DNA from: a virus
Taxonomy: Duplodnaviria > Caudoviricetes
DNA: 53,920 nucleotides
Direction: 5' to 3' (one strand)
Virus record (IMG/VR): IMGVR_UViG_3300017998_000013
Coordinates: 1-53,920 of that record
Shown here piece after piece: positions 10,107-32,604 of this stretch; the stretch's first letter is position 1, and the number at the start of each line of letters is the position of its first letter. The position numbers and the translations under genes were made by a program. The notes under the pieces were generated by a model. It searched no databases. It was given only the letters and a program-made list of their open reading frames with translations, and was not told the DNA's origin.

Positions 10107-10154
10107 TGGATATTGTTGTTGCAATCACCTTTATAATAGTTTATGATATCCCTT

Positions 10155-10652: not shown

Positions 10653-10660
10653 GAGCCAAC

Positions 10661-16446: not shown

Positions 16447-16478
16447 AAAGCCCCGGCCAATTAAGACCGGGGCTTTTT
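16447..16478. terminator. Bidirectional rho-independent terminator between the converging arms
   Basis: AAAGCCCCGG-loop-CCGGGGCTTTTT located between the two convergent stop codons. Confidence 0.8.
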
Positions 16479-16481
16479 GCT

Positions 16482-17768
16482 TCACTTCGGCCAGACGCCG
16501 AGCTTCCGAGCCTTATCAAGTTTTTCGTCCATCTGCTCCCACCCGTCTTTTTCGTACTCTTTGCCCTCGAAATCCACTAGCGCGAGTGATTCAGTCGCCT
16601 GTTGCTGGGCTTCTTCCAGCGTTTTGCCAAAACCTACACACTCCGCAATCAATCCGCCGTCTCCCATAGGGATACGATAAAACATGCCGTCTTTTTTATT
16701 CTTATAGAACTGCCCGAGCAGCACCCTGTCCATATCTTTCTCTTTGAGCTTGATAGGGATCGCCGTATCGTTGGCGGAATTCGACCATGTGACTATCTCG
16801 GCAGCGTATGGCGCAACATATTCAAGTTTCACATCTTCCCCACCAGCAACGCGATACATTACTTCGGTCAAGTTTTTAGTCCCGCGGGTCAACGCCCCCC
16901 CGCTCGGCCGGCCGAACCGCTGGCAAGCATCCGAATAATAGCCAACCGTCTTGCCGTCCACCTTCACCGCCCCGATTTCCGTGGACCTGACCCCCTGCAA
17001 TCCGCCTTTTTTAAGCCCTGGTCGAATCACATCATCGATATGCTTGACAACCGGGGGGAGGTCGTCATACGGCATGAAGTGGCCAGCGTAATTACAGCCC
17101 TTCAATTCGACCCCAAGGAGTGCATTATCCAGATAGTCGTTGCCGAAAAATTGCTCGTCGCCGACCTCTTCCCCGCCATCAGGTCGAGGTTTTTCAACCA
17201 TAATTATTTGATCTTCGGCGAAACAGTCGAGTTTCGCAGCTATTTTATATATTTTTGTAGCCGACTTTTTATAAGTCTCGACGTGGAAAGTCTCTTCAAC
17301 TCCTCGCGCATCGTTATTCAATTTCACCCATGTGTCAGGATGTTTTTTGAGATATTCGACAAGTTCTTCAATCCCTTCAACCGGCTTGTATTGCATTACC
17401 GGCAGCCCCCGCGCTTTTAGCATCTCTCGAAACTTAAACCGGTCCCCTTCCCATTCTTGCGCTCCCTGCCCACATCCTCCCGTCCTGATACCTCGCTTGC
17501 GGAGATCGTCTATAAGATCCCCGTAGCCGACATCAGGGAACCACACACAATCGACATTCTCAATGTCCTCAAAAAAGTAATCCCACCGCACAATCCCCGG
17601 CACCCCTTCACCCATAGCACAGTCGTGAGGCTTCGGGAAACCTCGCTCCCACGGAGAGAAGTATTCCATTATCTTCACATCTTGCGCGATCCGCTGCGCG
17701 ACGTGGATAAACAGTCCGCCTACATCAAATATCCTCCACCGCTGCTTGCTGAATGGTTTTTCGATCAT
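16482..17768 (-). CDS. PurD (GAR synthetase)-like ATP-grasp ligase
   Basis: GDLIDDLRKRGI..GG....QEWE.DR..F...L...GLP...Y, WVK, MVEK, and DACQRFGRP (cf. PurD EFNxRFGDP). ATGA overlap with the giant gene. Confidence 0.75.
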   Translation of the reverse strand: MIEKPFSKQRWRIFDVGGLFIHVAQRIAQDVKIMEYFSPWERGFPKPHDCAMGEGVPGIVRWDYFFEDIENVDCVWFPDVGYGDLIDDLRKRGIRTGGCGQGAQEWEGDRFKFREMLKARGLPVMQYKPVEGIEELVEYLKKHPDTWVKLNNDARGVEETFHVETYKKSATKIYKIAAKLDCFAEDQIIMVEKPRPDGGEEVGDEQFFGNDYLDNALLGVELKGCNYAGHFMPYDDLPPVVKHIDDVIRPGLKKGGLQGVRSTEIGAVKVDGKTVGYYSDACQRFGRPSGGALTRGTKNLTEVMYRVAGGEDVKLEYVAPYAAEIVTWSNSANDTAIPIKLKEKDMDRVLLGQFYKNKKDGMFYRIPMGDGGLIAECVGFGKTLEEAQQQATESLALVDFEGKEYEKDGWEQMDEKLDKARKLGVWPK

Positions 17769-20700
17769 TTTATTAACTCCAGATACCTGTCTCGTTCCTC
17801 ATCCGAAAGCCCGTGAGCCCGCCTGAACTTTGTGCGGAAAACCGGCTGAATCTGGTCGACCACATCCCCCGGCGCATTCTCCATGATTTCGGCGAGCTGG
17901 TCAAGCTGCATTTTCTTCACTTTCGCAATGTCCACTGGGAGATTCTTGCGCTGGCCCGGGATATCTCCCCTCATGACCTGAGACCAGAATTCTTTTTGCT
18001 CTCTCGGTATCTGCTGGTCACCTGCACGGTCCATGTACTTCGATATCCGGCGAATGTCTGGAGGCATCAGCAGTGATTCAGCAAACTGGTTCGCCCAGGT
18101 CCGGGCGCTTGCTTCCGACCGGGTAGCTTCGGCCATTCTTACCGGCTGCTCGAAAAACGGGACCTGTTCCGCTATCCCTTTCGCCCCGGCGAATATCCCG
18201 GCTCCGGTCCCGCTGCCCTTGGCTTCCTTCTTGCCCTCGTCGATCTTCTTCTCGTTTTTCTCATCCGAGGCGGCATACTGGTCCTGAACCCTGTGGATAG
18301 TTGCCCCAAGTTGGAGAATCTCGAGCGCCGGGGTATGGAGTGCGAATTTCGGCACGTCGAACTTGCCGAGGCGCAATTCCCCTTCCTTCACCTCTCCCGC
18401 CTTGCGCTTCTCTCCCCGCTGGTAATATCCACCTATGGCTTCATAAGCGAAGTACCCTATGGCGAGCATGGCGAGGCCGAGCCCTTGTTTCTTGAACGCC
18501 CTCATGACATAATCTGCCTCTTCGGGAGTGAGGTTTTCTATCCCCTTAGAGAACGCCACCCTGGCTGAGCCCTTCGCCGCGCCGAAAGCGTAAGACGTGA
18601 GTTCCGCCACGAAGTTCGTCGGGATCTTCACAATCGGCGTCATCATCTGCATCCCGGCTGCGGTAGCTTTCCCCAAGTCTCCCCTGGTCTTGAGATAATT
18701 CAGCCATATTCGATAACCCTTAATGACAAAATTATCCTGCATGAAAATAGCGCGGTTCGCGTCAATATAGGCATCCGCTGTGATCGTTGCCACGGTCACC
18801 GGGTCGCTCATGTCGTAGCCGTTCCGCATGGCCCATTCCGTTCGCTTCTGGAGAGAACGATAGAATTCCGCCCGCTTCGGCGTGACTTTCAACGCCCCAT
18901 GGACCCGCCCGAAAAAATCAAGTGCCGACGTGGGGAGCATGTCTTTCTTGCTGCCGTACAGCCGGTCCAATTCCCCGCGGCCGGTTATGGCCACGTCCTT
19001 GATATCCTGCCAGGTCTGTTTCTTAAACCACTGAGAGAAAGCGGCCGCTTCCGCCCGGACGTTCAGCCCGCCACCCTCCCGCGGGGCCTTGGCCGATATC
19101 CTGGACAGGCCAGGGAACAGTGACAACCCGCCTTCTATCAAGTCCTCAATCGGCGTGGTGATCTGCCGCATGGTGGCCGCTGCCGTGAGCTTGCCGACCG
19201 TCTGGATACTGGAGAGAATAACCGCCCGGCGCCACTTAACCGCCCAGTCGAGCCCTTTCTCTACGGGGGTCCTGTTTGCGTGTGCCTGCCGCCGGATTGC
19301 CGTGTCAACCGCCTCTTTCTTTTTCTCCACTTCTGCCTTGAGTCGTTGCGCCTCTGGGTCCAGTTTCAGGACCCGCCGCGCCCGCTTCTCGTAATTGCCG
19401 GTATCGAGCATCCGCTGCAGTTCTTTCAGCCGGGTCTGGTAACGGGCCTTGGCCATCCGGTTGCCGATATCGTTCAATTCCTGCTCGGTTTTCGGCGGCT
19501 TCGCGTCGATCTGGTCAAGCAGGGCTTTTTTCTCGTCCCTGACCGATTTCAGGCGCTTCGCTTCCTCGTCGTACTCAAGGGTCGTCTTATCCTTATACTT
19601 CCGTTTGCCGGCCGCTATCTGCTCGTCGAGGTCGTGAATCTCGTTTTTGAGTCGGGTCTTGACAGAATCGAGCGCAGTTTTCCATCTCTCTTCTGAGGAT
19701 TTCTGGTTGATGCCCTGATTCTTCATCTCCTCGTGTATCTGCTTCTGCAGGTCGCGCACTTCGTCGGATACCGGGTCACGCTGTAATCCGGAATGAAGAG
19801 GAGCTTGGCCGGCCTGTGCATCTTCGAGCCCGGACACAAGCCGCATCTGCCGGCGGATTTCCCGCATCTCGACCTGAATTTCCTCCTGGCTCATCTGGTA
19901 GGACTTGCCGTAGTTGGAAATAGCGTCTCTGATGTCCCGCTTTGACACGTCGGGGATCCCCTCGAATTCGGCGTAGATATCATCGACGATATCCCCGACC
20001 TTGGTAATGCCCTCTTGAACGCGGATTTTCATCATCTCGCCGAGAATAGCCGCCTGCTCGGGGTTGAAGTTCATGCTTAACGTGGAAAGCGACGCCCGGA
20101 GCTTGCCCGCCAGGGATTTAAATTGCGAGTCGAGCTCTTCCCGGGTGACTGCCCTCTTCTCCCTGCGCTTGGCGGCCGGTGACGGCTCTTGTTTGCTGAC
20201 TACCCGCTGCGCCTCGATGTTGGCGAGCTTCTCTTCGTACTCCTGAGATTTCTTAACCGCCGCTTCCAACTCCTGAGTGAGCGTTTCGATCTGCTTGCGG
20301 AGATCCTCGGGGATTTCTTTCTCACCGGTGGCTGCTCGGGCTCGTTGCAGGGACCGAGCGAGGGTGTAATCCTGTTTAACCAGCATACGGCGGAAACTGA
20401 GGGAGTGCCCGGCCTCGTACCCTGACCGACGAGCAACGTAATCGTTATCGGAAATGTCGTCCTCGATCACAGCCAGACGTTGACGCCCTTCGAGAATAGC
20501 CGCCTGGTCTCCGGACTGCACCGCCTTGTCGATAAGCCCCATGACGGTGTGGTGGTCATTGTAAAGCCTCATCCGGTCGTATTCAAAAGCAGCTTCCTCT
20601 TCGGTGGAGAGGGCGCGGGGCTTCTCGGCGTACTTCTTCGCTTCAAGTCGCGGGTCGAATTCGCCGGAGTCAACGCGCCGTTTCGCCGCCTCGAACGAGT

Positions 20701-23700
20701 GAGGGAATGACCGGCGCCACTCTACCTCTATCGGCCCGAGTCCGCGGGCTGCCCGCTCTCCTTCGGTAACGGCGTTTTTGATGGAGGTGGTGCGGGGAGA
20801 AGCATCAGCGCTGATAGTGTCGCCTTGTTGAAGAACACCTGCCATCTCCGCCTCGTCCTTATGAGCCAGCCCACCCTCCATATCCACTTTCTCATCCCCT
20901 CCTGGTTTAGCATCCTTCCCCTCCCATAACCTCTCAAGCGCGTCCGCCTCTGCCAGCCACTTCCGCGCCCCGGCCTCGTCCCGGTTCTTGACTGCCTCTT
21001 CTGCCTTGTCCAATGCCCCGTTATACTTGCGGAGAAATTCGGCTTTGTTGTCTCCAACGCTGCCATGCTGGTTGCCGGTCATGCGCCTGACCTTATCCCA
21101 AACATCCTCCATCAGCGATTTAAACCGCTGCCAGAGGTCGCCGAGTTTCTCTTTCATCCCCTTGACGAAATCCTGGTACTTCGTGCGCCCTTCGGTGAAT
21201 ACCTGCTTGCCGAGGGTTTCAAGGTGCGGGATGGCCGATTTTACCGCTCGGGGGATTTTGGATAATGATTCGTAGGCTTGCTGTAGACCCATGAAGTCGA
21301 GGGTAACGCTATTGTCCGGTCGCCAATCCTTAATCATCTGGATAGTTCTTGACGACATGGAATGGCCAGTATCATCAGGGGTGAATTGGTGGCTTATTAA
21401 CCAGTCGGCAAGGTCATCTACGTTATAACCGTTATCGTGGGCGAAGGCCATCACCCTGTCAACGTCGGGTGGTCTGAGTTGCTGCGGGGTGTCCGCTGCT
21501 GCACCAAGCGCCCCGGTGAATTTCACCTGATCGTCATGGGGGATTTCCTTGACCTTGCCAGACTTCACCCCAAACGATTCAAACGCCTCATTGACTTTGC
21601 CCTCGGATTTTACAGGCATTACCACTGCAACGATTTTGCCATCTTCCACGAAGTTAATCGGGTTCTTATCATCCTTGAACCTGATTTCAGCATCAGGGTA
21701 ATGGTGGCGGACATAAACATAAAATTTCTGTGACATATCCGTAGTTGCGCCGTTTTCACCAGTCAGCCGGACAAAAGCAACCTCGTCTTTTCCTGTTTTT
21801 ATAGGTTCGTCCGAAATCCCTTGAAAGGACACATCATCCCCTGATCTTTGCGCCACCATGTTCCCGTTTTTGTCCATAGCTAAGAACTTTGCACTGGCTA
21901 CGGGAGTCCCTTCCTTCGGGTTGGAAGTATACATTTTGACAACTTGCGCGGTGCGCTCGTCCAGGTCTTTCGCCTTATCAGGGGGCATCTCCGATTTGAA
22001 AGGGACTGTCGGCTTGCCTTTAACAATCAGTACGCCGTTGGTATGCCAGACATTATTATCAGCATCTTTCCCTGTGACCCCATTCTCAATGCCTTCGGCT
22101 TTTACTCCCGTTGCCTTCGGCAGAGGTCCGTAGCCTTTTGTCCCCTTTGGGACTTTTTCGGATGCAGGGAAAAGTTTTTCGACGGTCTGTTTAAATGCCT
22201 TGAGCGCCTGCTGATCGTTGAACACCTCAAAAATCCCGTCATCAGGAACTTCGATAGCGACGTATGCCCCTGCATCACGTAACGCTTGCTGTGCCTGTTT
22301 TATGAGCGGGTCAATGCGCTTGGCGTCCGCCTTTGCCACTTCGAGAGCATTCTCGACTTCCGCAATCTTTTCTTGCCGCTCTTCTGCTGTGAGGTGCTGG
22401 AAACGTTCAGGGTCGCTGTAAAGTTTTACCCTGCTGGTAGCATCGCCCATGGCATCAGCGGCTTTGCCGCGCGCTTCCCGCACTTCGGACAGTTCTTTAA
22501 GCAACGGGTTGAATCTATCCCAGTCACGATACTCAGGCGCTTCCTTTATCGCCTCGTCAATATTCGCGATTAAATATCGCTTCTGCTCCTTGAGTGGCGT
22601 GCCTTCCTTCCTGGCGGTCTTTACCGCTTCCGTGACCACCTCGGCGGGGGTGTCGGGGACCCTTGCGGCTTCGTAGTCGGCGCGGGCGGTCTCTTCCTCT
22701 TTTGCGACTTCCTTTGAGGCGGGCTTATCCGGCACAAGGTCAACAATCTCGCTGGTATTCCCTTTAGCATCGAGCGTGATAATTCCATCGTACCCGTCTT
22801 TTATGAGGGCTTTTGATAGAGCCTTGCCTTTTTTGCCGCCGTATTTGTCAGATAGAGCCTGTTTCCAGTTGTCGGGTTCGCCATATCCCCCGCCCCATCC
22901 AACAACAAGGGGGTTCTTAAATTCGACCTCTCCTTCTTTCAGGTTCGGATAATCATCGCCTTTGAACGTGATCGGCCGCTCGTTGATATATCGCCCTGCC
23001 GGTTCAAGGTGCTGGCCGAAACGCTCTCCCATGTTCGGGGCTTTCTCGGTATTCCAGATATATCCCATCTTTACAGGCTTGCCAGTCTGGTATTTTACCC
23101 CTCCGCCTTCAGCCGGAACTTTATCGGGAACGGGGGGTAATGGCGTCACGTCTCCGAATCTTGCGTTGATCGTGCCTGCCGGTTTGCCATCTTTATCAAT
23201 TACAAGGTGAATCGTCTCGTTGTTTGAGGCGTCCTTGTATTTATTCATTGCCTTGGCGTTCTTCTTTGCCGCTTCGTGCATCCCCTCGGGCGTTCCGTCA
23301 TGCTTCGAGACTTCATAGCCCATCGGTTCGCCATTAAGGTCGTTTACTTGGGTGAGGATGGTGTTCGGCTCTGGGGCGGGCTTCTTGGTGATCTGCTTTC
23401 CTTCCACCTTCTCCACGGCTGCGTTCATGTCCTTTGAGTGAAGGTCCTCTCCCGGGTGCGCCTTCTCCCACTCATCATAAACCGCGGGATTCTCTTTCTT
23501 GAGGAATTCGGCCCCTTCGTCGCGGGTGACGAGTTCCCCATCGGGCTTTGCAAACATCCGCTCGGAGTTTTCCGGCATGTCCGGGTTTGCTTCGAGTATC
23601 GACGGATGGTCTGAACCTACCTCTCCGATTACGGTGTCTGATCCACTCCGAAGAGCAGGGCGCAGGCGGGGCAACTCGTCGCTTGCTGGTGCATCCACAT

Positions 23701-25228
23701 TTTGCACCGTGGACACTGTTTCGGCGGCTGCGGGTTCGTTATCGGCTGGAACTGGTTGTTTCTTGCCCTTGCTTCCCTTTCTCGATTCCTTATCACGTTT
23801 AGGCGCCTCCGGTAGTGGTTTGGCTTTGTCGCCCTTATTTATGATTGTCTGCTTACCGTCACCGTCCCGCTGTACGAGCACGTCATACGGATTCAGCGTG
23901 TTATCCTCGGGCCGGATGCCAATGGCGGGGCGTTCCTTACCTGACCGGGAGTCGATAATCACTGAGGCAATGCCGCCCTTGATTCGGGCTTTCTGCTCTC
24001 TCACGGCTTCCAGGGAAACGTCGGTCTGCCCGCTGGCGTTCTCCTCAAGCGGGTCCACGATAGGAGTGCCGCCCCTGATCTCTGATGCGGATTTCTTCGG
24101 CGGCTCTTCTTCGGATATTGCAAGACGGGTAGCCTTGCCGCGCTTCTCTTTGAGCGTTTCGCTGATCTCGTCAAACGGGTCGATTATCTCGGGCGCGGGG
24201 GCTTCTGCCTGGCGGAGTTCGATTTGCTTCTGCCCGGTCACATCCTTGGCGGTTCCCTCAACCGTCACGCCTTCCTCGGCTGGCACAGCTTCCCGCATCT
24301 TATCTATGGCGTGCTTCATCTGGAGTTTATTCGGCTTTACCTGTTGGAAATACTGAGTGAAGCCGGTAACGGTGTCGTTGTACGCCTTCTGCCGTACTGC
24401 GAGGTCTTGAGTCGGGGTTGCCGCCATCTCTTCGGAAACGTCCCTTATCCCGGTCGCCGCACTGTAGGTCTGCATGAAAGCGTCAAAATCGGTCTGGTCT
24501 GCCGGAGCGCCGAGTCGAGCTGCCCCTTTACCTTCCGGCGCCACTCCCTGAGATATCGGCAGATTCCGCATGGCCTGGGCGACAAGACCCGTAACAGTGT
24601 CCATCGCCTTCTTGTCGCCTGTCCCCGCCATGTATGCTTGAGCTGCGTTTGTAACCCAATCTGCCAAGTTAAGCGTCTTGACTATTGGGACCAATGGCGC
24701 GAGTCCCTTCCGTGCGATATCGGCGGATTTGTCAGAGGGGAACGCAATCGTACTCTTGCTTGCCTTCACGCCTGCTGCATGAGACGGCATCATTTGACCG
24801 TAGTCATCAGGTTGGAGACTGGCGTTTAAGTCTTTTAAGTACCCTATGGGGTCCAGACTGATTGCTTCCCTCGCCTTGGTGAGAGCGCCCCCGGTGGCGG
24901 CAGGGGCGCTTGCGGTGGGAGGGGTGAGGGACATGGCTTGGCGGGTAGTGGGGGGTGCGAATCCTGAACCTTGCTGAGCTGTCGGAGCTGAGAAACCTCC
25001 TGATTGCGGCTGTGCCTGAATAGGTGCAACGGTCGCCTGGGTCTGATCGTCGGTAAGTGGGGTCTCCGAGCCGTCCGGCAATACGCGAGTCTGGCGGCTG
25101 CCGGCCACGGGGCGGAAATCATTAGGAAGTAATTGACGGGTACCGGAAGGGGCGGGTTCGTCAAAAGGGTCAACAATCCCGCCGGGAGAATCTTCGTAAG
25201 GGTCAACTATTATTGCTGCGCGGGCCAT
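17765..25228 (-). CDS. Giant (2487 aa) ejection/polyvalent virion protein
   Basis: Last and largest gene of the podovirus internal-protein block. Mosaic of modules, with an ART-like segment (~22735-23097) and a helical C-terminal half. Confidence 0.8.
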   Translation of the reverse strand: MARAAIIVDPYEDSPGGIVDPFDEPAPSGTRQLLPNDFRPVAGSRQTRVLPDGSETPLTDDQTQATVAPIQAQPQSGGFSAPTAQQGSGFAPPTTRQAMSLTPPTASAPAATGGALTKAREAISLDPIGYLKDLNASLQPDDYGQMMPSHAAGVKASKSTIAFPSDKSADIARKGLAPLVPIVKTLNLADWVTNAAQAYMAGTGDKKAMDTVTGLVAQAMRNLPISQGVAPEGKGAARLGAPADQTDFDAFMQTYSAATGIRDVSEEMAATPTQDLAVRQKAYNDTVTGFTQYFQQVKPNKLQMKHAIDKMREAVPAEEGVTVEGTAKDVTGQKQIELRQAEAPAPEIIDPFDEISETLKEKRGKATRLAISEEEPPKKSASEIRGGTPIVDPLEENASGQTDVSLEAVREQKARIKGGIASVIIDSRSGKERPAIGIRPEDNTLNPYDVLVQRDGDGKQTIINKGDKAKPLPEAPKRDKESRKGSKGKKQPVPADNEPAAAETVSTVQNVDAPASDELPRLRPALRSGSDTVIGEVGSDHPSILEANPDMPENSERMFAKPDGELVTRDEGAEFLKKENPAVYDEWEKAHPGEDLHSKDMNAAVEKVEGKQITKKPAPEPNTILTQVNDLNGEPMGYEVSKHDGTPEGMHEAAKKNAKAMNKYKDASNNETIHLVIDKDGKPAGTINARFGDVTPLPPVPDKVPAEGGGVKYQTGKPVKMGYIWNTEKAPNMGERFGQHLEPAGRYINERPITFKGDDYPNLKEGEVEFKNPLVVGWGGGYGEPDNWKQALSDKYGGKKGKALSKALIKDGYDGIITLDAKGNTSEIVDLVPDKPASKEVAKEEETARADYEAARVPDTPAEVVTEAVKTARKEGTPLKEQKRYLIANIDEAIKEAPEYRDWDRFNPLLKELSEVREARGKAADAMGDATSRVKLYSDPERFQHLTAEERQEKIAEVENALEVAKADAKRIDPLIKQAQQALRDAGAYVAIEVPDDGIFEVFNDQQALKAFKQTVEKLFPASEKVPKGTKGYGPLPKATGVKAEGIENGVTGKDADNNVWHTNGVLIVKGKPTVPFKSEMPPDKAKDLDERTAQVVKMYTSNPKEGTPVASAKFLAMDKNGNMVAQRSGDDVSFQGISDEPIKTGKDEVAFVRLTGENGATTDMSQKFYVYVRHHYPDAEIRFKDDKNPINFVEDGKIVAVVMPVKSEGKVNEAFESFGVKSGKVKEIPHDDQVKFTGALGAAADTPQQLRPPDVDRVMAFAHDNGYNVDDLADWLISHQFTPDDTGHSMSSRTIQMIKDWRPDNSVTLDFMGLQQAYESLSKIPRAVKSAIPHLETLGKQVFTEGRTKYQDFVKGMKEKLGDLWQRFKSLMEDVWDKVRRMTGNQHGSVGDNKAEFLRKYNGALDKAEEAVKNRDEAGARKWLAEADALERLWEGKDAKPGGDEKVDMEGGLAHKDEAEMAGVLQQGDTISADASPRTTSIKNAVTEGERAARGLGPIEVEWRRSFPHSFEAAKRRVDSGEFDPRLEAKKYAEKPRALSTEEEAAFEYDRMRLYNDHHTVMGLIDKAVQSGDQAAILEGRQRLAVIEDDISDNDYVARRSGYEAGHSLSFRRMLVKQDYTLARSLQRARAATGEKEIPEDLRKQIETLTQELEAAVKKSQEYEEKLANIEAQRVVSKQEPSPAAKRREKRAVTREELDSQFKSLAGKLRASLSTLSMNFNPEQAAILGEMMKIRVQEGITKVGDIVDDIYAEFEGIPDVSKRDIRDAISNYGKSYQMSQEEIQVEMREIRRQMRLVSGLEDAQAGQAPLHSGLQRDPVSDEVRDLQKQIHEEMKNQGINQKSSEERWKTALDSVKTRLKNEIHDLDEQIAAGKRKYKDKTTLEYDEEAKRLKSVRDEKKALLDQIDAKPPKTEQELNDIGNRMAKARYQTRLKELQRMLDTGNYEKRARRVLKLDPEAQRLKAEVEKKKEAVDTAIRRQAHANRTPVEKGLDWAVKWRRAVILSSIQTVGKLTAAATMRQITTPIEDLIEGGLSLFPGLSRISAKAPREGGGLNVRAEAAAFSQWFKKQTWQDIKDVAITGRGELDRLYGSKKDMLPTSALDFFGRVHGALKVTPKRAEFYRSLQKRTEWAMRNGYDMSDPVTVATITADAYIDANRAIFMQDNFVIKGYRIWLNYLKTRGDLGKATAAGMQMMTPIVKIPTNFVAELTSYAFGAAKGSARVAFSKGIENLTPEEADYVMRAFKKQGLGLAMLAIGYFAYEAIGGYYQRGEKRKAGEVKEGELRLGKFDVPKFALHTPALEILQLGATIHRVQDQYAASDEKNEKKIDEGKKEAKGSGTGAGIFAGAKGIAEQVPFFEQPVRMAEATRSEASARTWANQFAESLLMPPDIRRISKYMDRAGDQQIPREQKEFWSQVMRGDIPGQRKNLPVDIAKVKKMQLDQLAEIMENAPGDVVDQIQPVFRTKFRRAHGLSDEERDRYLELIK

Positions 25229-26931
25229 CAGCGACCCCCGTATTTTTTATTGTAAAATGCCTCCAAGTCTTTATCGGCAACGCCGGGGTTCTTCGCCCTT
25301 GCGGCTGTCATCCATTTATCTTTCGACGGCGCCGCCTTGCCCGCGCTCCTTGGGTTTATTTTGCTGCCACCGCCATGAGGTTTCGCCTTGGCAATCGCCT
25401 CCAGTATCTGAGTTTTCTTTTCCTTATTAGTGACTTTGTTGGCGGCAGCGGTCAGGTCGTCTTTACTATGGCCTTTATCGACTGCCCCCTGCATGGTAGC
25501 GGCCATATCTGTTCCTGAAATCGACCCTTCAGGGTCAAGGCCCTTCATCCATTCGCTCAATTTCTCAACCGTCGCGTGCCCTTCTGCCTTGGTGGCCGGT
25601 TTGCCTTCTAATTCGGCTTTTGCCAACCGCTTCGCCTCATTGGCGATCCCCACCACATCCCCTTTCCATTTATCGTCCTTTTCAAGGAGGTCGATGTACT
25701 TTTTCTCAACCTTGTCTTTCTTTTTCTCGCTGTCGTCTTTCTTGTTCCGCGCCTCAATCTGCATCCCGATTCCTTTGAGGTGTCCGGCGACGGTGGTCTC
25801 AACCTTTTTCTGCCCTGCCTCGATGGTGGCGTTCGTTTTCGCCATAGGGTCCTGCGCTCCCGGTATCATATCCCCCTCTTCGGTCAGGATACTGAAGCCT
25901 GTCTTTGAGTCAGGATCTTCGACGACCTGGCGGGTCGGCTTATCCTTGTTGAAGAGCGTCTTCGCAGTGTTCATCAGGTCTGCGGTTTTCTGAGTGCTTC
26001 CCGCCTTCTTCATCTGCTTGACGTATTCCAGCCGCGCCTCGCCGGTCTTCAGGTCCTTCGGCATCTTGTCCAGAACTTCGGCCTCCCGGGTGTCCTCTGC
26101 CCTCTGCTCTCCCGCTTTCTTTACCTGCTCGACGAACTTCTCCCCGCCTTCCTCATTCGCAGCGACGGCGGCTAGAAGTATTGGGCCGAAACTGGCGGTA
26201 TGTACGAGAGTGTTCTTAAATTCATCTATCGGGATTTCGTGGATGTATTCCTTATCGCCGTCCATTTTGGTGTGGGGTGTGGGAGGGGAAATACTGCCGT
26301 CTGCGTTGCCGGTCCGGACCACGGGGATAACTACTCCTTTGTCAAAATCTATCAACAGCGATTCCGCCTCTTTACCCTCCAGGAGCTTCGGCCCGGCATA
26401 CTGGTTGAACGCCTCCATCAGTCCTGGCACCTGCTGGCTGCTCAATCTCACCTTGCGCTGGCCTTCCGGCAAGCTCTGGGCGTGCTGGATAAGTGCCGGT
26501 TGGACCTGTCCGATTATCTGCGTGAGTTGGTGGGCGGCGTAGGTCTGCGCCAGGGCTTTATGTGGGTCGTTGTCGAGGTCGGGCGACGCTTTGGTGAGCC
26601 CGTAAGCTGCGTCTACCTCTTCGGGGGTATATTGCGGCTGCGTACCGTTCGCTGCTGCCTGTGCCAATTTCATAGATGCGCTGACAAGCGGAGCGTGCAG
26701 CATTTTATGCTTGAGGTCTAGGTCGTCAAAAGCCTGCTGCGTCTTCTGGTGGACGATACTCTGCTTTTTCTGCTCCATCTCGACGTCCATCAACTGCCGA
26801 TGTTGGGCGTGATCTTCCTTCTCCATATTCGCCTTATCTATGCCTTGGAAAACGCCGGTCACCTTCGCAAAGGCGTCTATGCCACTCTCGACCGGATCAC
26901 CGTATGGAGACAAACCAAATCTCGCCATCAT
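25228..26931 (-). CDS. Putative ejection (internal virion) protein
   Basis: Position immediately upstream of the giant protein; Q/K/A-rich and helical; start and stop overlap the neighbouring genes. Confidence 0.65.
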   Translation of the reverse strand: MMARFGLSPYGDPVESGIDAFAKVTGVFQGIDKANMEKEDHAQHRQLMDVEMEQKKQSIVHQKTQQAFDDLDLKHKMLHAPLVSASMKLAQAAANGTQPQYTPEEVDAAYGLTKASPDLDNDPHKALAQTYAAHQLTQIIGQVQPALIQHAQSLPEGQRKVRLSSQQVPGLMEAFNQYAGPKLLEGKEAESLLIDFDKGVVIPVVRTGNADGSISPPTPHTKMDGDKEYIHEIPIDEFKNTLVHTASFGPILLAAVAANEEGGEKFVEQVKKAGEQRAEDTREAEVLDKMPKDLKTGEARLEYVKQMKKAGSTQKTADLMNTAKTLFNKDKPTRQVVEDPDSKTGFSILTEEGDMIPGAQDPMAKTNATIEAGQKKVETTVAGHLKGIGMQIEARNKKDDSEKKKDKVEKKYIDLLEKDDKWKGDVVGIANEAKRLAKAELEGKPATKAEGHATVEKLSEWMKGLDPEGSISGTDMAATMQGAVDKGHSKDDLTAAANKVTNKEKKTQILEAIAKAKPHGGGSKINPRSAGKAAPSKDKWMTAARAKNPGVADKDLEAFYNKKYGGR

Positions 26932-27335
26932 GCCCTCCGTCTTGATTCGCGGAATATGTTTAATCTGTCTTGAAGATCGGCAAGCGTGAAGCTCATAACC
27001 TTCGGGAGAAACATCCCCGTCCTTGCCATATATTTTTTATATCCGGGGAACCCTTCACAAAGCATCTTCTCTTCCTGTCTTGCGGTGTGGGAAAGGAGTA
27101 CCAGCAACACCAGCCAGGCCGGTAAGCCGCCTCTCCATCCCGCGCAGAGAGCGAATACCCCCCCGCACATGATAAGAGAGGCGAGGTAGGCAGGGTGGCG
27201 GATATATTTATAAAGCCCCTTCTGGTAAATCTGCTCGGGCTTCGTTATCAATAGGTTGAATCCTGGGTTATTCCAGACCACCCAGAATCTTATCCCGTAT
27301 CCGACGAGTATCATTGAAATCTTTAAGGATATCAT
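26928..27335 (-). CDS. Isoprenylcysteine carboxyl methyltransferase (ICMT/Ste14)/PEMT-family membrane methyltransferase
   Basis: GLYKYIRHPAYLA, TM segments, EEKML...FPGYKKYM.RTGMFLP. TAATG overlap upstream and ATGA overlap downstream. Confidence 0.85.
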   Translation of the reverse strand: MISLKISMILVGYGIRFWVVWNNPGFNLLITKPEQIYQKGLYKYIRHPAYLASLIMCGGVFALCAGWRGGLPAWLVLLVLLSHTARQEEKMLCEGFPGYKKYMARTGMFLPKVMSFTLADLQDRLNIFRESRRRA

Positions 27336-27541
27336 TACATTATGCACGCGGCGATTATTCCCGCAATAGCTATGGCCGCGCCGACTCCCCCGGAGATCAT
27401 CGTCATCTCTTGAGCTTTCTTGGCGTCGGCCTCTTGCTGGTTCGCTTGGTCAACCTGTTGCTGCTCTGCCGAGGAACGGACGAAGCCGCTGATCGCATTG
27501 GACTGTTCTCCCAAGCCTGTAGAGATAATTCCTCCGGCCAT
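27335..27541 (-). CDS. Small putative ejection protein (68 aa) with hydrophobic Gly/Ala C-terminus ending ...AACIM
   Basis: SD GGAGGGGG before MAGGIIS; Q-rich coil followed by GGVGAAIAIAGIIAACIM. Confidence 0.7.
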   Translation of the reverse strand: MAGGIISTGLGEQSNAISGFVRSSAEQQQVDQANQQEADAKKAQEMTMISGGVGAAIAIAGIIAACIM

Positions 27542-27600
27542 TTCCCCCTCCGGTTTTCTTTTCTCTTGACTTATCACCCCCGACATGATAGGGGTAATAC

Positions 27601-28362
27601 ATGAATCTGTCAAGGCTAAAGTGCAAAAGATGCGGCCATGAATGGTGGCCTCGGATTGAAACTCGCCCCAAATCTTGTCCCGAATGTACGAGCGAAATAT
27701 GGGATCGAGACTACAAACTTAAAGGTGGAGTAAAACCACGATCCATCCTCGACACTATGGCTAAGTATGTTGTTAAGCCTATTGATTCGGAGTGTTGGGA
27801 GTGGCATGGCACCACTGACAAGGGGTACGGACGGTTTAAAAAAGCTGGCAAACAAACTCTGGCGCATAGGGCTGCTTATGAACTTTACATAGGCCCTATC
27901 CCCAAAGGGATGAAAGTGTGTCACACCTGTGACAACCCCCCTTGCACGAACCCCGATCATTTGTTTCTTGGCACCGATCTTGATAATAAGACGGATAGTG
28001 TTAACAAAAACCGTCATGCACACGGGGAGAAGCAAGGGGCTTGCAAATTGACCAGTGAGCAGGTCCTTGCCATACTGGATGACCCTCGTCCTTATATTGA
28101 AATTGCTAATGCCTATGATGTGGCCTACATCACTATTTCTCGCATTCGTCGTGGAAGAGGATGGAGACACATTACAAAGGGCTTGATCCCCCCGAAACAA
28201 CGCAAGCCGACTTATGGCCGCGCCAAACTTCAAAGCTCCGATATCCATGCAATCCGCAAGGACCCCCGGACGTGTAAAGATATCGCTAAAGATTACGGTG
28301 TAACTCTTTCGACAATCAGTCGGATTAAGAATGGGACGACATACGGACACGTTATCTCCTAA
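27601..28362 (+). CDS. HNH homing endonuclease (Zn-ribbon, HNH, two HTH repeats), antisense to the late operon
   Basis: ECWEW.G..DKGYG, AHRAAY, VCHTCDNPPCTNPDHL..GT..DN, and two IA..Y.V...TISRI repeats. Confidence 0.9.
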   Translation: MNLSRLKCKRCGHEWWPRIETRPKSCPECTSEIWDRDYKLKGGVKPRSILDTMAKYVVKPIDSECWEWHGTTDKGYGRFKKAGKQTLAHRAAYELYIGPIPKGMKVCHTCDNPPCTNPDHLFLGTDLDNKTDSVNKNRHAHGEKQGACKLTSEQVLAILDDPRPYIEIANAYDVAYITISRIRRGRGWRHITKGLIPPKQRKPTYGRAKLQSSDIHAIRKDPRTCKDIAKDYGVTLSTISRIKNGTTYGHVIS

Positions 28363-28366
28363 CTCC

Positions 28367-28963
28367 TCATTGTGACTTATAGGCTGTCATGGCGCTTTGC
28401 TGCGCCACGTTGGGGTTCGGCGCACTCCCCAGACTGATCAGCTCATCCTGCGTTGCCACGTTCTGACGCGCCGTGTTCTGCGCCCCCGCCACCATCTGAG
28501 CCCTTGATAGATTATTCAATCTGGAATTGACTGCCGTCTGCTGCGGAGTCGCAACGACTCCTTGCGAGGCCATCTGACGGGCTTCCACTCCTTGCATGGA
28601 GTCCGCCGCGCCGGTAGCGTTCGTGGTTGCCTGGTTTACGGCATCAGTGAGTATTTCGGGATTATTGAAAGAAGTCTGCATCAGTAAATTCTGCTCGACT
28701 GGTTTGTACTGCGTCTCCCAGTTGGCGAATTCAGCCGCGAGGACTTTGGCAGCCATGCCTTGAGCCGTCCCGGTTGGGGCGATCTGTCCTGACTGCGCTT
28801 CCGTTTGGAGCCCTGACAGGTCAATTGGTGTTAGTGATGCAGGAGTTCCGGGATTAAGTACCCCCCAGGCCCCTCCCCCCCCCCCACTCGCCGGCTTATA
28901 TACAGACCATGTGCCAGTCACGGGGTCGTAAAGATTCTGCTGTCCCTGGGGAGTGTAGTCCAT
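28367..28963 (-). CDS. Putative ejection/internal virion protein
   Basis: Q/A/N-rich; WETQYKPVE motif; located in the ejection block. Confidence 0.6.
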   Translation of the reverse strand: MDYTPQGQQNLYDPVTGTWSVYKPASGGGGGAWGVLNPGTPASLTPIDLSGLQTEAQSGQIAPTGTAQGMAAKVLAAEFANWETQYKPVEQNLLMQTSFNNPEILTDAVNQATTNATGAADSMQGVEARQMASQGVVATPQQTAVNSRLNNLSRAQMVAGAQNTARQNVATQDELISLGSAPNPNVAQQSAMTAYKSQ

Positions 28964-28978
28964 TATAAGCGCCTCCTA

Positions 28979-29635
28979 TTACCACGCTGGCGGATTGTCA
29001 GGATTCAGCCATTTGAAAGTATCGCTACTTGCCCCAAGGTTGAAATTAGCATCAAGGGCCGGGTTGCCGGTCCCTGCGTTTGGTGATCCGCTGGCACCAG
29101 CCGGGTTGCTGCTCATAAGCGCCCTTGTCCCGAGTGCTGCCGCCGCTCCCACTCCTGAACCAATAGCGTTTTCTTCCGCACCTTCCGCCATCAGTTTCGA
29201 TTTCTCATCAGCAATGGCTTTCTGTACCGACTGTTCCGCAAGTTGCCCCTGCCCGCCCATGGCCTGAGTCTGCTGGCCTCTGCCGATATCGACGATGTTC
29301 TGGAGGCCGGACATCTGCTGTGCCCTGACTGCCGCATCCGCGCTTGTCGTCCCTTTTGACTTGATATCGGCGGCTGCGTTGCCCCTTCTGGCTATCTGTG
29401 TCGCATTCTCGCCAGGGGCGGCCCCTGCGACACCTTCCATAACGGAAGCGTTGACTTTGCCTGCCGCTGCCGAGGATTGCGCCCCGGACTTGGCATTACC
29501 GGTCTCTTTGGTTATAAATTTGTCTATGTAAGGTTTGTACGAAGTTGAGTAATAATCCCAGAGTTTGACATTATTCTTTTGCTGCTGGATCTGGTCTTGT
29601 GTTTCCTGTATCCCGCCACCGCCACCGCCGCCCAT
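28979..29635 (-). CDS. Putative ejection protein with N-terminal poly-Gly
   Basis: MGGGGGGG...WDYY..YKP; C-terminal GSGVGAAAALG. Follows a GNAT gene, as in many podoviruses. Confidence 0.65.
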   Translation of the reverse strand: MGGGGGGGIQETQDQIQQQKNNVKLWDYYSTSYKPYIDKFITKETGNAKSGAQSSAAAGKVNASVMEGVAGAAPGENATQIARRGNAAADIKSKGTTSADAAVRAQQMSGLQNIVDIGRGQQTQAMGGQGQLAEQSVQKAIADEKSKLMAEGAEENAIGSGVGAAAALGTRALMSSNPAGASGSPNAGTGNPALDANFNLGASSDTFKWLNPDNPPAW

Positions 29636-29636
29636 G

Positions 29637-30023
29637 TCAGACCTCCAGGCTGTACGTAGTTAGTCCCCTTCGGACTCCCGGCATCCGGTCGAAGCCTACA
29701 CGGGGGGACTGCCACACCATCCTGGAAGCTCCTACGTTTCGAGCTATTTCACGCAAGAACTCTGTGTTTCTCTCTCTTTTACCATTAATCCCGTAAGCAA
29801 TCCAGACAAAAAGCACGGTTCCCCATCGTTTATGAGGATTAATCTTACAGACTGCGAAGCTCTCGTCCTCGTCGTTCAAGAACAGACACGCCGTCCTGTT
29901 CTGAATTGCGTAATAAACATCGTCCTCGGTCCAGTCGCAATCGTCGGCAAACCGCTTTGCAATGGCGGTGATCTTGCCAACGATATCCGGCCAGACTTTC
30001 TCAAGGTCGGTGGTGAAGATCAC
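29637..30023 (-). CDS. Phage GNAT-fold acyltransferase-like protein
   Basis: VWPDI...I, LFVWIAYG, L.EIAR..GA.RM...SPR.GF.R. Canonical position between the tail and ejection genes. Confidence 0.6.
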   Translation of the reverse strand: MIFTTDLEKVWPDIVGKITAIAKRFADDCDWTEDDVYYAIQNRTACLFLNDEDESFAVCKINPHKRWGTVLFVWIAYGINGKRERNTEFLREIARNVGASRMVWQSPRVGFDRMPGVRRGLTTYSLEV

Positions 30024-30211
30024 TTGGTCACCATCTTCTTTGAAATCACGAGGCTGTTATCCACCAGCCCAGTATTTATCAAGTCCTGCGCCGTGAGCGG
30101 CCCGCCGTTCTTCTGAACTGTGCTGAAAAACACCTGGAGCTGGTCCATGTTGTCTATCAGGTCTTGAAGATTCACGCTCTTTTTTATGACCGGCGTCTTT
30201 ACGAGGCTCAT
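30020..30211 (-). CDS. Small virion-module protein
   Basis: Coupled to both neighbours; LTAQDLINTGLV motif. Confidence 0.6.
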   Translation of the reverse strand: MSLVKTPVIKKSVNLQDLIDNMDQLQVFFSTVQKNGGPLTAQDLINTGLVDNSLVISKKMVTK

Positions 30212-32604
30212 TGTGGAAGTTCCCCGATATCCGAAGCGAGATAAACAACCGTCGCTCCTTTCGTACCATACACCCGGCAGTCAACGGCGTCAACCATTGC
30301 GTTCGCCATCCCTATCATCTGCGGGTTTTTCGATGTGACCGTAGCGGTTATTGTCTGCGGCGCCGGGTTGCCGTTCCCGTCCACTATCTGCGGGTAGATT
30401 ATATCCACTACGACCGGGTATGACGTTGCGAGCACCTTAATCCACTGCGGCATACTCGGCGGGCCGGACTGTCGCGGCGATTTCCAGTCGAGTGAGCGAG
30501 GAGATGCAACATTTGAAGCAAGCGACACGATATCATTGCCGACCTGGAGGAACAGGTAACCGGTCACGAAGTCGTAGCATCCCGCCGTAGCGTAGAAATC
30601 CAAGTCTACGAAGTTCTTGGTTGCCGGATCGAATATGAACCCCGCCTGAACGTCGCCGTTTGTGTAAAACCCAACGTATTTATTCTCCCAGAAGTACGCC
30701 GAAATGGATGATGGAGCGTAATTTGCCCACTCATCGCGGGACATAATATCCTGAGTGATGATATTATTCGTCCCTTGCCCGAGAGCAATAAGCCCCTCCG
30801 GTGCGGCATAGATCGAAAACGCCCCCATGTTTACGACACTGCGCTTTGACAGGCAACTGAACCCTAACGGAATATAGGCCGGGACGCTGTTCTCCGGGTC
30901 GGTGAACGTGATCGCCTGCGGGAGCCCTTGAGTCAGTATCACAAGGGTATTCCCCCATGCAACGAGCCCCATGATTTCATCTTCCATAGACTTCTGATAA
31001 CTGGCAGGCCATGCGTGGGGGTAGCTCGGAACGGAAAGGCATAGAGTGTTGTTGAGCCAACACGCCATAGCCTCATTCGGAAGAGCTGCGAGCCCCTCCA
31101 CACCGGCCGGTGGGCCATCCCATTCGGCAGACTGGAGCACATCCGCCAGAGCTGAGTCAAGCAGGGAATCGGTATAGGACGCCGTGGCCACTGCCACCTG
31201 TTCGACAAGCTGAAAAATCTCGTTACCGTTCGCGTCTTGATTCAGCCGGTATATGTTAGAGTACAGAACCCAGAACAAAGGATCTGCCGGGCCGGTTTCA
31301 AGCCCCGTGACTGACACATGGTCCCCATCGAGCAGAGCAATAAGATTCGACACCGGCCCGGGGGGGCCAACCTCCCCATATCCGTTCACATACGCCTGAA
31401 CATAGTTTTTAGATTCGAGAGTGGTGGGGTCCGGATCGACGAGCTTCATTGCAGAGCATTTAACGTAAATTCCAGATGCGAACGTGCCATAGTCGTTAGA
31501 ATCCACCCCGTCAAGAGTGAAGTGCTTTGCGTCAATAACGGTAATGGTCCCGATCCACCCCTCAAGCTCCACCATCCCGACCATGTTGTAGAATTTCAGA
31601 GAGGTCCCTGTAGTGAGATTATGCGCTGTGCCTTGAGTCAGTTTAGCGGGGTTCGCCTTGCTGATATTGTCTGATGTCCCGATGGACACGGCAACGGGGG
31701 TGAATACTGAGGCAAGAGGGGACCCTGACGAGAGCACTCGCGACTGAAGTGTCCACGTCCCGCTGGTAAACGTGGGGTAACTTGTGGAATCCACCCCGTC
31801 TATGGTGAAATGAGACGAATCAACCACCGTGATCGTTCCCTGGTAGCCGTTAAGCTCAATCATTCCTATAATGCTGAACAAGAGGGTGTCACCGGTGATG
31901 AGTCCGTGGTTGGTATCAGTGCATTCAGCCGGGTTCCCTTTCGATAACACGGTAATCGTCCCGGAGTTCATCACCTTCAGACCTGTAGCGTAGAAACTGG
32001 CAAGCCCCGCTGCGATAGTGAGCCCGTTGAACGCGAACGACACCCCGTCGAGGCCGGTGACCCCGGTGGAGAAAAATTCCAGTAGCCAGTTCAGGCTGAT
32101 ATTCCCCATCCCGTTGTCGTAGACGGTCACCTTCGCGCCTGTTGAGTCGAGGATGACTGATGCTATCATCGAGAAAGGGGCAGACACGCCAAGGACTGTG
32201 GCAACGGGGGCGGTGAGAGGGGCGGGTGGTGAGGGTTTGCGGTAGGCCATGGGGTAAGCGGTGCCACCCTGTTTATAAAGGTTCTTATCCGTTACCCGCA
32301 ATTCGCCCGCTTCGGTGTAAAATACCCGCTTCCATGAGTCGTTAGGAAGAGGGGCGAGCACGGCGTCTACATCATCCGCCCATGCGAGCCACTTTACAGA
32401 ACCGTCGCCATCATAGAGAAATATCGAGACTATCGGTCCTGCGACCGTCGGGGTGTATTCGGCACCATCGGTCCCGAGCGGGACGAGTCCGCCGTGATCG
32501 AACCGGCAGTTTTTGGCTACCTGAGCATGACCGGGGGGGATAAGCCGCGGGTCGGTGATCCTTGGAACAATGCCGCCAAACTGAGAAAAAGTCAAGAGCG
32601 CCAT
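30208..32604 (-). CDS. Tail nozzle/stabilisation protein with inserted E1-FCCH-like repeats
   Basis: F.G..PR, AKNC.F..G.L.P, Y...YVN.YGE.GPP, PHAWP..Y, CLSKRS.V. Two repeats of S.KxNPA...H.L.TG...GM.EL.G...ITV.D..HFT.DGVDS..Y.TF.SG. Confidence 0.75.
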   Translation of the reverse strand: MALLTFSQFGGIVPRITDPRLIPPGHAQVAKNCRFDHGGLVPLGTDGAEYTPTVAGPIVSIFLYDGDGSVKWLAWADDVDAVLAPLPNDSWKRVFYTEAGELRVTDKNLYKQGGTAYPMAYRKPSPPAPLTAPVATVLGVSAPFSMIASVILDSTGAKVTVYDNGMGNISLNWLLEFFSTGVTGLDGVSFAFNGLTIAAGLASFYATGLKVMNSGTITVLSKGNPAECTDTNHGLITGDTLLFSIIGMIELNGYQGTITVVDSSHFTIDGVDSTSYPTFTSGTWTLQSRVLSSGSPLASVFTPVAVSIGTSDNISKANPAKLTQGTAHNLTTGTSLKFYNMVGMVELEGWIGTITVIDAKHFTLDGVDSNDYGTFASGIYVKCSAMKLVDPDPTTLESKNYVQAYVNGYGEVGPPGPVSNLIALLDGDHVSVTGLETGPADPLFWVLYSNIYRLNQDANGNEIFQLVEQVAVATASYTDSLLDSALADVLQSAEWDGPPAGVEGLAALPNEAMACWLNNTLCLSVPSYPHAWPASYQKSMEDEIMGLVAWGNTLVILTQGLPQAITFTDPENSVPAYIPLGFSCLSKRSVVNMGAFSIYAAPEGLIALGQGTNNIITQDIMSRDEWANYAPSSISAYFWENKYVGFYTNGDVQAGFIFDPATKNFVDLDFYATAGCYDFVTGYLFLQVGNDIVSLASNVASPRSLDWKSPRQSGPPSMPQWIKVLATSYPVVVDIIYPQIVDGNGNPAPQTITATVTSKNPQMIGMANAMVDAVDCRVYGTKGATVVYLASDIGELPQ

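Follow-up and report, generated by a model that had tools for sequence, protein, structure and literature searches.

A putative ejection-protein cassette with an ICMT-family methyltransferase gene and a PurD-like ATP-grasp gene in an uncultivated short-tailed phage

Genes of the cassette

The IMG/VR virus record IMGVR_UViG_3300017998_000013 is a stretch of DNA of 53,920 bases with an estimated completeness of 77%; all of it was analyzed, and it is called the window here. Our subject is the group of genes at positions 16,482 to 30,023, and in particular two enzyme genes within it, one for a small methyltransferase of the ICMT (isoprenylcysteine methyltransferase) family and one for a PurD-like protein with an ATP-grasp fold. 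As far as our searches could tell, these represent two apparently unstudied enzyme families that are tied by position to an ejection-protein cassette. The window has a minus-strand late operon in which Pfam and PHROG matches identify the small and large terminases, portal, major capsid protein, a lysozyme, two SU10-type adaptors and a nozzle-like gene. We take as the cassette all genes 3' of the nozzle-like gene, which by the open reading frame (ORF) listing and translation are on the minus strand except for one HNH gene. Judged from its sequence, this stretch appears to form the 3' end of an uncultivated short-tailed phage's late operon and to be a cassette of internal virion (ejection) proteins with the backbone of an ordinary podovirus. 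Its features are as follows, from the nozzle-like gene onward (aa, amino acids; IVP, internal virion protein; SAM, S-adenosylmethionine).

30208..32604, minus strand: nozzle / tubular-tail-B-like protein, 798 aa (phrog_511, E 6.3e-96); follows two SU10-type adaptors (PF24175) and precedes the cassette
30020..30211, minus strand: p63, 63 aa; stop codon and GNAT start overlap in GTGA; G001, G002 and G005 have homologues
29637..30023, minus strand: GNAT-fold protein, 128 aa, GTG start; in the position of T7 IVP-A (gp13), fold predicted
28979..29635, minus strand: protein beginning MGGGGGGG, 218 aa; position and size range of IVP-B (T7 gp14 / P22 gp7 class); phrog_611, E 7.6e-17
28367..28963, minus strand: p198, internal-protein candidate, 198 aa; 47-63% conserved in G001 and G002
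27601..28362, plus strand: HNH homing endonuclease with a C-terminal helix-turn-helix, 253 aa; Pfam HNH_3, E 3e-12; phrog_59, E 7.6e-36
27335..27541, minus strand: p68, predicted tail-anchored protein, 68 aa from ATG, ending AACIM; residues 46-68 hydrophobic; weak phrog_594 match, E 4e-4
26928..27335, minus strand: minimal ICMT-family SAM methyltransferase, 135 aa from ATG; PF04140, and profile match to 4a2n
25228..26931, minus strand: p567, internal-protein candidate of the gp15 size class, 567 aa; homologues 27-28% identical at the equivalent place in G001 and G002
17765..25228, minus strand: giant internal protein, 2487 aa; C-terminal ~1100 aa conserved, N-terminal part mosaic; putative relative of polyvalent proteins
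16482..17768, minus strand: PurD-like ATP-grasp ligase (predicted), 428 aa, last gene of the late operon; family profile and AlphaFold2 model
16447..16476, minus strand: terminator-like hairpin with a 12-bp stem (8 G-C pairs), 6 nucleotides past the ATP-grasp stop codon

At the junctions, the p63 and GNAT genes share GTGA, a spacer of 1 nucleotide separates the GNAT gene from the poly-glycine gene, and overlaps of TAATG (p68/ICMT), ATGA (ICMT/p567), TGATG (p567/giant) and ATGA (giant/ATP-grasp) follow. The ORF listing and the junction sequences thus agree with an earlier note on this DNA in gene order, overlaps and the 1-nucleotide spacer. The open frame of p68 extends to 27613, and the ICMT is 139 aa long if read from an upstream GTG. 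The ATGA overlap with the giant gene and the hairpin after the stop codon fit the ATP-grasp gene as the closing gene of the operon; the hairpin comes from a consensus scan only, in which 2 sites were found against 1.1 expected. Neither p198 nor p567 matches a family in Pfam, PHROG or NCBIfam, and megablast of the whole region against known phages gave no match. The nozzle-like protein has tblastn matches of 27-31% identity to virion proteins of Vibrio, Stx-converting, Ralstonia and Achromobacter phages. This same protein (30208-32604) contains a match to the ubiquitin-E1 FCCH domain (PF16190, E1_FCCH, E 6.7e-14) in two stretches. For comparison, 22 window proteins were searched by tblastn against five related records; these and other loci are cited below by our working labels (G and L).

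The methyltransferase and the ATP-grasp protein

The earlier note had taken three cassette genes for enzymes, and at the superfamily level all three are real, the GNAT by its fold, the ICMT by Pfam and the ATP-grasp by profile and model, and the ICMT and ATP-grasp have their conserved motifs intact. The ICMT clears the Pfam gathering cut-off as a single sequence (PF04140, 33.2 bits against 24), as does its homologue in G003 (48.5 bits), and it also matches the Pfam PEMT family (E 2e-7). A profile made from the window protein and nine relatives matches the solved archaeal ICMT 4a2n with an E-value of 5.7e-14, over residues 84-193 of 194 only. Nine residues (R46, H47, P48, Y50, E88, E89, F96, Y99 and Y102) are invariant in 10 of 10 aligned ICMT sequences; they form RHPxY and EE...F..Y..Y, which align to 4a2n and which we take to be the cofactor-site motifs of ICMT. 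Hydropathy gives hydrophobic segments at residues 1-20 and 47-82 and, if the latter is read as two helices, the enzyme is predicted to have about three membrane helices.

This is a short protein for its family. Only 44 residues precede RHPxY, against a median of 119 in its cellular relatives (76 sequences parsed among the best 80 of 433 confirmed relatives), and just two of these 76 are 140 aa or less in length (ORF lengths, which are upper bounds). None of the best 80 of the 433 is more than 49% identical to the window ICMT. Function-level assignments were not reached: the protein scores 46.7 bits against a cut-off of 160 for the NCBIfam family isopcys_mtase (NF040696) and 18.5 bits (E 0.0013) against 325 for LmtA (TIGR04571), and the architecture of an isoprenylcysteine methyltransferase is incomplete in that the match spans the C-terminal 110 of 194 residues of 4a2n. 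A tblastn search of 50,697 phage records with the window ICMT found no match, and the same search with the ICMT of G004 found one weak match (E 7e-3).

The gene just upstream, p68, had drawn the attention of the earlier note for its hydrophobic C-terminal helix and terminal CIM. The first of these features is conserved and the second is lineage-specific, as the p68 homologues of G001 and G002 end in ...AVLAFL and ...YALLAA, with the hydrophobic tail and without the cysteine. We considered ACIM as a CaaX-like box and rejected it because the cysteine is at -3 rather than -4 and is not conserved, being absent from G001 and G002; the counterpart in G003 ends in ...SGLLSML. Genes for ICMTs 36-40% identical to that of the window are present in G003, G004 and L005, where they lie between the gene for this last hydrophobic-tailed protein (...SGLLSML) and those for a ~500-aa protein and a giant. 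A minimal ICMT gene directly behind that of a protein with a hydrophobic C-tail recurs in two lineages that have no other detectable similarity.

The ATP-grasp protein, as a single sequence, falls below the Pfam cut-off (GARS_C, 20.3 bits against 34.8; GARS_N and GARS_A absent). Profiles and structure prediction see further. A profile of 56 family sequences matches PurD structures (2yw2, E 2.1e-16), hhalign against a PurD profile gives a probability of 98.7% over 371 columns, and the AlphaFold2 model (predicted local distance difference test score, pLDDT, 95.9) finds GAR synthetases as its best Foldseek matches (template modelling, TM, score 0.72, E 3e-22), the top matches all being ATP-grasp enzymes. 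E107, K149, R155, E221, E264, D280 and R284 are invariant in the 56 sequences, and hhalign pairs K149 with PurD K144, and D280 and R284 with PurD E284 and R288. The PurD equivalog test failed (TIGR00877, 40.8 bits against a cut-off of 288), and in the hhalign columns the PurD motifs GGREH, NTGGMG and GDPE are not kept. Together the profiles and the model indicate that the 428-aa protein, which has the three-domain ATP-grasp fold, is homologous to PurD over its full length but only distantly, and is not itself a PurD. The BFVD library of viral structures contains no close ATP-grasp model (best TM 0.45), and tblastn with the protein against the 50,697 phage records gave no match.

The family to which this protein belongs is large, unnamed and known almost only from metagenomes. 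All-against-all HMMER comparison assigns 1,002 cluster representatives to it at E<=0.001 and 243 at E<=1e-30, and a long, fully supported branch separates it from PurD in a quick maximum-likelihood tree of 65 rows. There are 23 family-level matches in the named-protein collection, none from NCBI and every one named "hypothetical protein". The only phage records with a member are three genomes of Aquificae viruses, where the annotation given is purine enzyme or hypothetical; the available part of the paper describing these viruses has no occurrence of phosphoribosyl, ATP-grasp, purine or ligase. Locus scans of viral contigs with the single ATP-grasp proteins P0001, P0015 and P0174 found no relative, and a scan of genome contigs with the family alignment found no locus, and hence no prophage or host. 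The same alignment scan of metagenome contigs found 4 loci only, one identical to the window gene and one the G001 contig.

Four genomic contexts of the gene were sampled, and all are morphogenesis modules, never an early or replication module. In the clade of the window (with G001, G002 and L032) it comes immediately after the last of the large internal-protein genes. In L025, whose protein is 31% identical by BLASTP, genes for an adaptor-like and a nozzle-like protein and four more proteins, a peptidase among them, are followed by the ATP-grasp gene as the last late gene. L035 (26% identical) has a nozzle-like gene, genes for five proteins of 261-758 aa, the ATP-grasp gene, a GNAT acetyltransferase gene that overlaps its end, and then a tailspike gene. 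These three contexts, in each of which the ATP-grasp gene directly follows the last large internal-protein gene, sit in three separate parts of the family tree. The fourth is that of the Aquificae viruses; in the two records examined the gene lies between those for portal and small terminase.

Several members have been invaded by inteins. All six members of 750-795 aa (P0026, P0074, P0096, P0134, P0148 and P0184) have matches to LAGLIDADG or intein-splicing families, several of them below the Pfam cut-off. Four of the six inteins lie beside conserved motif residues (one after E159, one after K223 and two after D280); the other two are placed less precisely, at residues ~166 to ~207. Six other members of the family have 60-150 extra N-terminal residues, for which there is no Pfam match. 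The PurD-like ligase family with intein-invaded conserved motifs is new, as is a minimal ICMT of about three predicted helices.

Related records and the other cassette genes

G005 is nearly identical to the window, with cassette proteins at 84-100% identity, and has the GNAT and ICMT genes; its contig stops 48 aa into the giant gene, and the ATP-grasp position lies beyond. G001 (84% complete) and G002 (60% complete) have the gene order of the window from the adaptors to the ATP-grasp, with proteins ~50% identical (26-63%). A profile search of both records found no ICMT, nor is there room for one, since their p68 and p567 genes are 12-14 nucleotides apart. Some further detail of G001 concerns its nozzle end: within 23767-28852 (L015) a 753-aa protein has the p63 homologue as its N-terminus, and the ~5 kb between the nozzle and GNAT genes encode this protein, one of 619 aa and an antisense one of 229 aa with a lipoprotein-like N-terminus, which may be a tail-fibre module.

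A second, unrelated podovirus lineage comprises G003 (a complete record with terminal repeats), G004 and L005. Here a GNAT-fold gene is followed by genes for a 296-aa protein whose N-terminus is rich in glycine and whose C-terminal tail is hydrophobic, the ICMT (at the position equivalent to that in the window), a ~500-aa protein and a 1,801-aa giant. BLASTP found no similarity between the proteins flanking the ICMT in the window and in this cassette. The GNAT fold of the 151-aa protein of G003 comes from the ESM Atlas only; hhalign of the window GNAT family against it gave a probability of 0.2%. A profile search found no ATP-grasp gene in G003. Between the nozzle-like and GNAT-fold genes of G003 (L006:6276-8678) there is also an 800-aa late protein with a LAGLIDADG domain (E 2.1e-10) that probably marks an intein; L005 has a counterpart of 758 aa. 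Farther off, the cultured Achromobacter phage CF418P1 has a nozzle protein 27% identical over half of the query, and a cassette similar by gene order and size, in which the nozzle homologue is followed by smaller genes, a 591-aa protein and a giant of 2,684 aa.

Four records (window, G001, G002 and G003) are long enough to be judged for all three enzymes, and only the window has them together. The GNAT, ICMT and ATP-grasp are thus not one system, because the ICMT and ATP-grasp have been gained, lost or swapped independently, and the comparison suggests that these two are accessory genes, acquired separately, with the inheritance of one independent of that of the other.

The GNAT gene is an already known feature of podoviruses. 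The 128-aa protein has no Pfam, NCBIfam or PHROG match at the thresholds used (Pfam E 0.01, PHROG E 0.001), and it is assigned by fold alone. All seven members of its family match phrog_610 (function unknown), the best with an E-value of 2.2e-9 and the window protein with 0.0057. Its AlphaFold2 model is of moderate confidence (pLDDT 74.3); acetyltransferase entries (GNAT) fill the Foldseek list (best E 4.2e-4, TM 0.55-0.60), a VIA Z of 9.1 is only modestly above chance level, and a structure row of the ESM Atlas puts the protein with a GNAT cluster (TM 0.69). The GNAT fold is a mixed beta sheet with CoA bound at the beta4-alpha3 junction. G78, G81, K82 and R83 do not vary among the seven sequences, and the model places them at the strand-helix junction; their spacing differs from that of Q/R-x-x-G-x-G/A after beta4, which we take to be the acetyl-CoA pyrophosphate-binding motif of GNATs. 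The gene is conserved in G001, G002 and G005. Hardies et al. (2016; PMC4819975) report that T7 IVP-A matches acetyltransferases, that podoviruses commonly carry a small acetyltransferase-like gene between the gene for the nozzle (tubular tail B) and that for IVP-B, as the earlier note had also said, and that T7 IVP-A is required for morphogenesis yet does not remain part of the virion. By position and fold, and not by T7 sequence, the window GNAT and the 218-aa protein appear to occupy exactly the IVP-A and IVP-B positions.

A glycine-rich N-terminus in the product of the gene after the GNAT recurs as MGGGGGGG in the window, MGGGGDS in G001, MSGGGGGG in G002 and MGKKGGSS in the analogous protein of G003. 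The poly-glycine protein of the window has no tblastn match in the 50,697 phage records. As to the families matched here, phrog_594 (p68), phrog_610 (GNAT) and phrog_611 (poly-glycine protein) possibly come from one set of phages, if PHROG numbers track family size.

The HNH gene is missing from G001, G002 and the nearly identical G005, where the p198 and p68 genes are adjacent, and it appears to be a recent insertion. Elsewhere in the window, at 8688-11650 on the plus strand, a helicase is apparently split by another free-standing HNH gene (ORF 10143-10652). The upstream half (ORF 8688-10106) matches positions 250-605 of phrog_16 and the downstream half (ORF 10661-11650) matches positions 813-925 and also DNA methyltransferase families; further HNH genes are at 6739-7128 and 8228-8722.

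The giant protein of the window has no Pfam, PHROG or NCBIfam match above threshold, and phmmer against PDB sequences gave 0 matches. Its residues 1378-2487 are 57% identical to the giant of G001, and residues 1309-2487 are 38% identical to that of G002. The G001 homologue (L007:668-9997, 3,109 aa) has an LPD1 domain at 1420-1502 and a Kinase-PolyVal domain at 1598-1761, both missing from the window giant, and the 1,801-aa giant of G003 carries LPD38. Through the domains of its G001 homologue, the window giant can probably be placed with the polyvalent proteins, although it has no recognised domain of its own.

Possible roles and known parallels

We tentatively favour, at a little less than even confidence, the reading that the ICMT and the ATP-grasp protein each putatively act on the ejection proteins encoded beside them, because the positions of both genes are non-random. 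The earlier note had proposed a check for conserved co-occurrence with the ejection genes; this is borne out for the positions of these two genes and not for the three enzymes as a set, which are not co-inherited. If the reading is right, each enzyme would be produced late alongside the ejection proteins and would act on these ahead of packaging. For the ICMT this would mean methyl esterification, at the membrane, of a carboxylate, with the C-terminus of p68, encoded just upstream, as the most plausible target; in this way the carboxylate at the C-terminus of a tail-anchored ejection protein might be neutralised. The ATP-grasp, instead or as well, could be an ATP-dependent amide ligase that joins an amino acid or amine to a carboxylate of an internal protein. 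The GNAT might be an assembly factor, or it might N-acylate the protein encoded by the following gene at its glycine N-terminus, in which case an IVP-A-type GNAT would acylate the N-terminal glycine of an IVP-B-type protein. Non-enveloped animal viruses have N-acylated penetration proteins, and the GNAT step would be the counterpart of these in a bacterial virus. More generally, some short-tailed phages may chemically finish their membrane-penetrating ejection proteins with enzymes of their own. The narrower proposition, that at least one of the ICMT and the ATP-grasp acts covalently on an ejection protein, we regard as possible and on the whole doubtful.

Several observations weigh against action on the neighboring ejection proteins. 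In the phage ICMT the N-terminal third of the solved enzyme 4a2n has no counterpart, and the p68 homologue is retained in the two records (G001 and G002) that have no ICMT. Phage CF418P1 runs from its giant gene straight into lysis genes, with neither an ICMT nor an ATP-grasp gene there. The proteins encoded upstream of the ATP-grasp gene in its three branches have no obviously shared C-terminus, and two members of the family (P0034 and P0088) are fused, one to an N-terminal acylphosphatase domain (E 6e-14) and one to a HAD-type hydrolase domain (E 6.4e-5), which hints at small-molecule chemistry. L032 provides a further such point. Over L032:1-2690 and window 17470-17970 the 3' end of the giant gene is nearly identical in DNA, and identity drops shortly past the ATP-grasp start codon; the L032 ATP-grasp protein is 51% identical to that of the window and 77% to that of G001. 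There is thus a recombination breakpoint at the start of the gene, which is exchanged as a unit between close backbones, and such an allele swap argues against tight co-adaptation of the ATP-grasp with the giant. Finally, accessory genes in general are often found at operon ends.

Some of these same facts would be expected if both enzymes were accessory functions unlinked to the ejection proteins and housed in permissive, late-expressed sites, an explanation that we consider unlikely, if less so than those taken up after it. The ICMT would then methylate a lipid of the host envelope, as LmtA does lipid A or PEMT phospholipid, for example to block superinfection or re-adsorption, and the ATP-grasp would be a small-molecule ligase. 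Both genes are dispensable in relatives, the ATP-grasp allele has been exchanged as a cassette, and the acylphosphatase and HAD fusions are in keeping with such a ligase; the ICMT superfamily includes lipid methyltransferases (the PEMT match above), and the match of the window protein to LmtA, though weak, points the same way. That the stretch tolerates insertions can be seen from the HNH gene, which was inserted beyond p68, ~200 bp upstream of the ICMT gene. Chance use of permissive sites, however, fits poorly with an ICMT gene that occupies precisely the same position in two lineages without detectable similarity in the flanking proteins, and with an ATP-grasp gene that is in morphogenesis modules in all four sampled contexts and is translationally coupled to the giant gene.

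Rather improbable, in our judgement, is that the ATP-grasp, and perhaps the GNAT, are solo effectors that are packed in the head, ejected with the DNA and act on host targets early, as domains of polyvalent proteins do. The giants that adjoin the enzyme genes are of the polyvalent type, and exchange of alleles between close relatives would suit a gene in an arms race; it is argued in PMC5512222 that when enzymes are encoded on their own among late structural genes, the capsid serves to deploy them. However, no ATP-grasp of the family is fused into a giant (the longest among the 150 matches listed is 795 aa, and the long forms carry inteins), a membrane enzyme of about three predicted helices would be an unlikely passenger, and, as reported in PMC4819975, the virion does not keep T7 IVP-A. 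The claim of the earlier note that the GNAT, ICMT and ATP-grasp form one built-in system tailoring the termini of ejection proteins by N-acylation, C-methylation and amide ligation is very improbable and did not hold up: the three genes do share one translationally coupled operon, a glycine N-terminus after the GNAT and a hydrophobic C-tail before the ICMT recur in the second lineage, and L035 pairs an ATP-grasp with a GNAT, but G001 and G002 are without the ICMT and G003 without the ATP-grasp, the ATP-grasp alleles are swapped and the CIM ending is not conserved.

Passage of protein and DNA across two membranes by short-tailed phages is still poorly understood, and the favoured reading, modification of ejection proteins by enzymes encoded beside them, raises the testable question of whether these proteins are covalently modified. 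If they are not, both families remain unexplained late-expressed phage enzymes. Among open-access full texts we found no description of an ICMT-family or PurD-like ATP-grasp gene in a phage ejection cassette. In the parts of these sources available, the only mention of a phage ICMT is as a BLAST match, where a paper on Edwardsiella phages (PMC3025963) deals with DNA replication; PMC5512222 has 0 mentions of ICMT or isoprenylcysteine and 2 of ATP-grasp, which concern RNA ligases; in a paper on jumbo phages, ATP-grasp comes up only in connection with R2K peptide ligases and RNA ligases; and a 2022 review of ejection proteins (PMC8954989) has no occurrence of acetyl, methyltransferase, post-translational or myristoyl. 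The legend to Fig. 7 of PMC4819975 refers to a site for a SAM-dependent methylase in phage H66.

Of the known systems, the T7-type operon (gp13, gp14, gp15 and gp16, with like arrangements in P22 and epsilon15) resembles the cassette in directly following the nozzle gene and in its order of a small acetyltransferase-like gene, a ~200-aa protein and then successively larger helical proteins, according to PMC4819975 and PMC8954989. It differs in that the window giant has 2487 aa, against 1,102-1,321 aa for the gp16-class rows examined in the size table of PMC8954989, and in that the window adds two enzyme genes and an HNH gene and has a giant that probably belongs with the polyvalent proteins. 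To the latter (Iyer et al. 2017, PMC5512222) the cassette is linked by LPD1 and Kinase-PolyVal in the G001 giant, LPD38 in the G003 giant and the mosaic N-terminal part of the window giant, which itself differs from them in having no recognised domain. The window ICMT shares with ICMT / Ste14 (4A2N) the SAM-binding C-terminal core with its RHPxY and EE motifs; it is shorter (135 aa, with ~three predicted helices), and no protein prenylation machinery is evident. The ATP-grasp is like PurD in full-length homology, fold and aligned core residues, and unlike it in not having the substrate motifs and in being encoded in phage morphogenesis modules rather than purine operons. In bacteria, a RimK-type ATP-grasp ligase adds residues to a protein C-terminus and a RimI-type GNAT acetylates a protein N-terminus. 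The window ATP-grasp is PurD-like, and RimK-type viral models are distant from it (TM 0.31-0.34), but the logic of RimK and RimI is the nearest known parallel for action of these phage enzymes on the ejection proteins encoded beside them.

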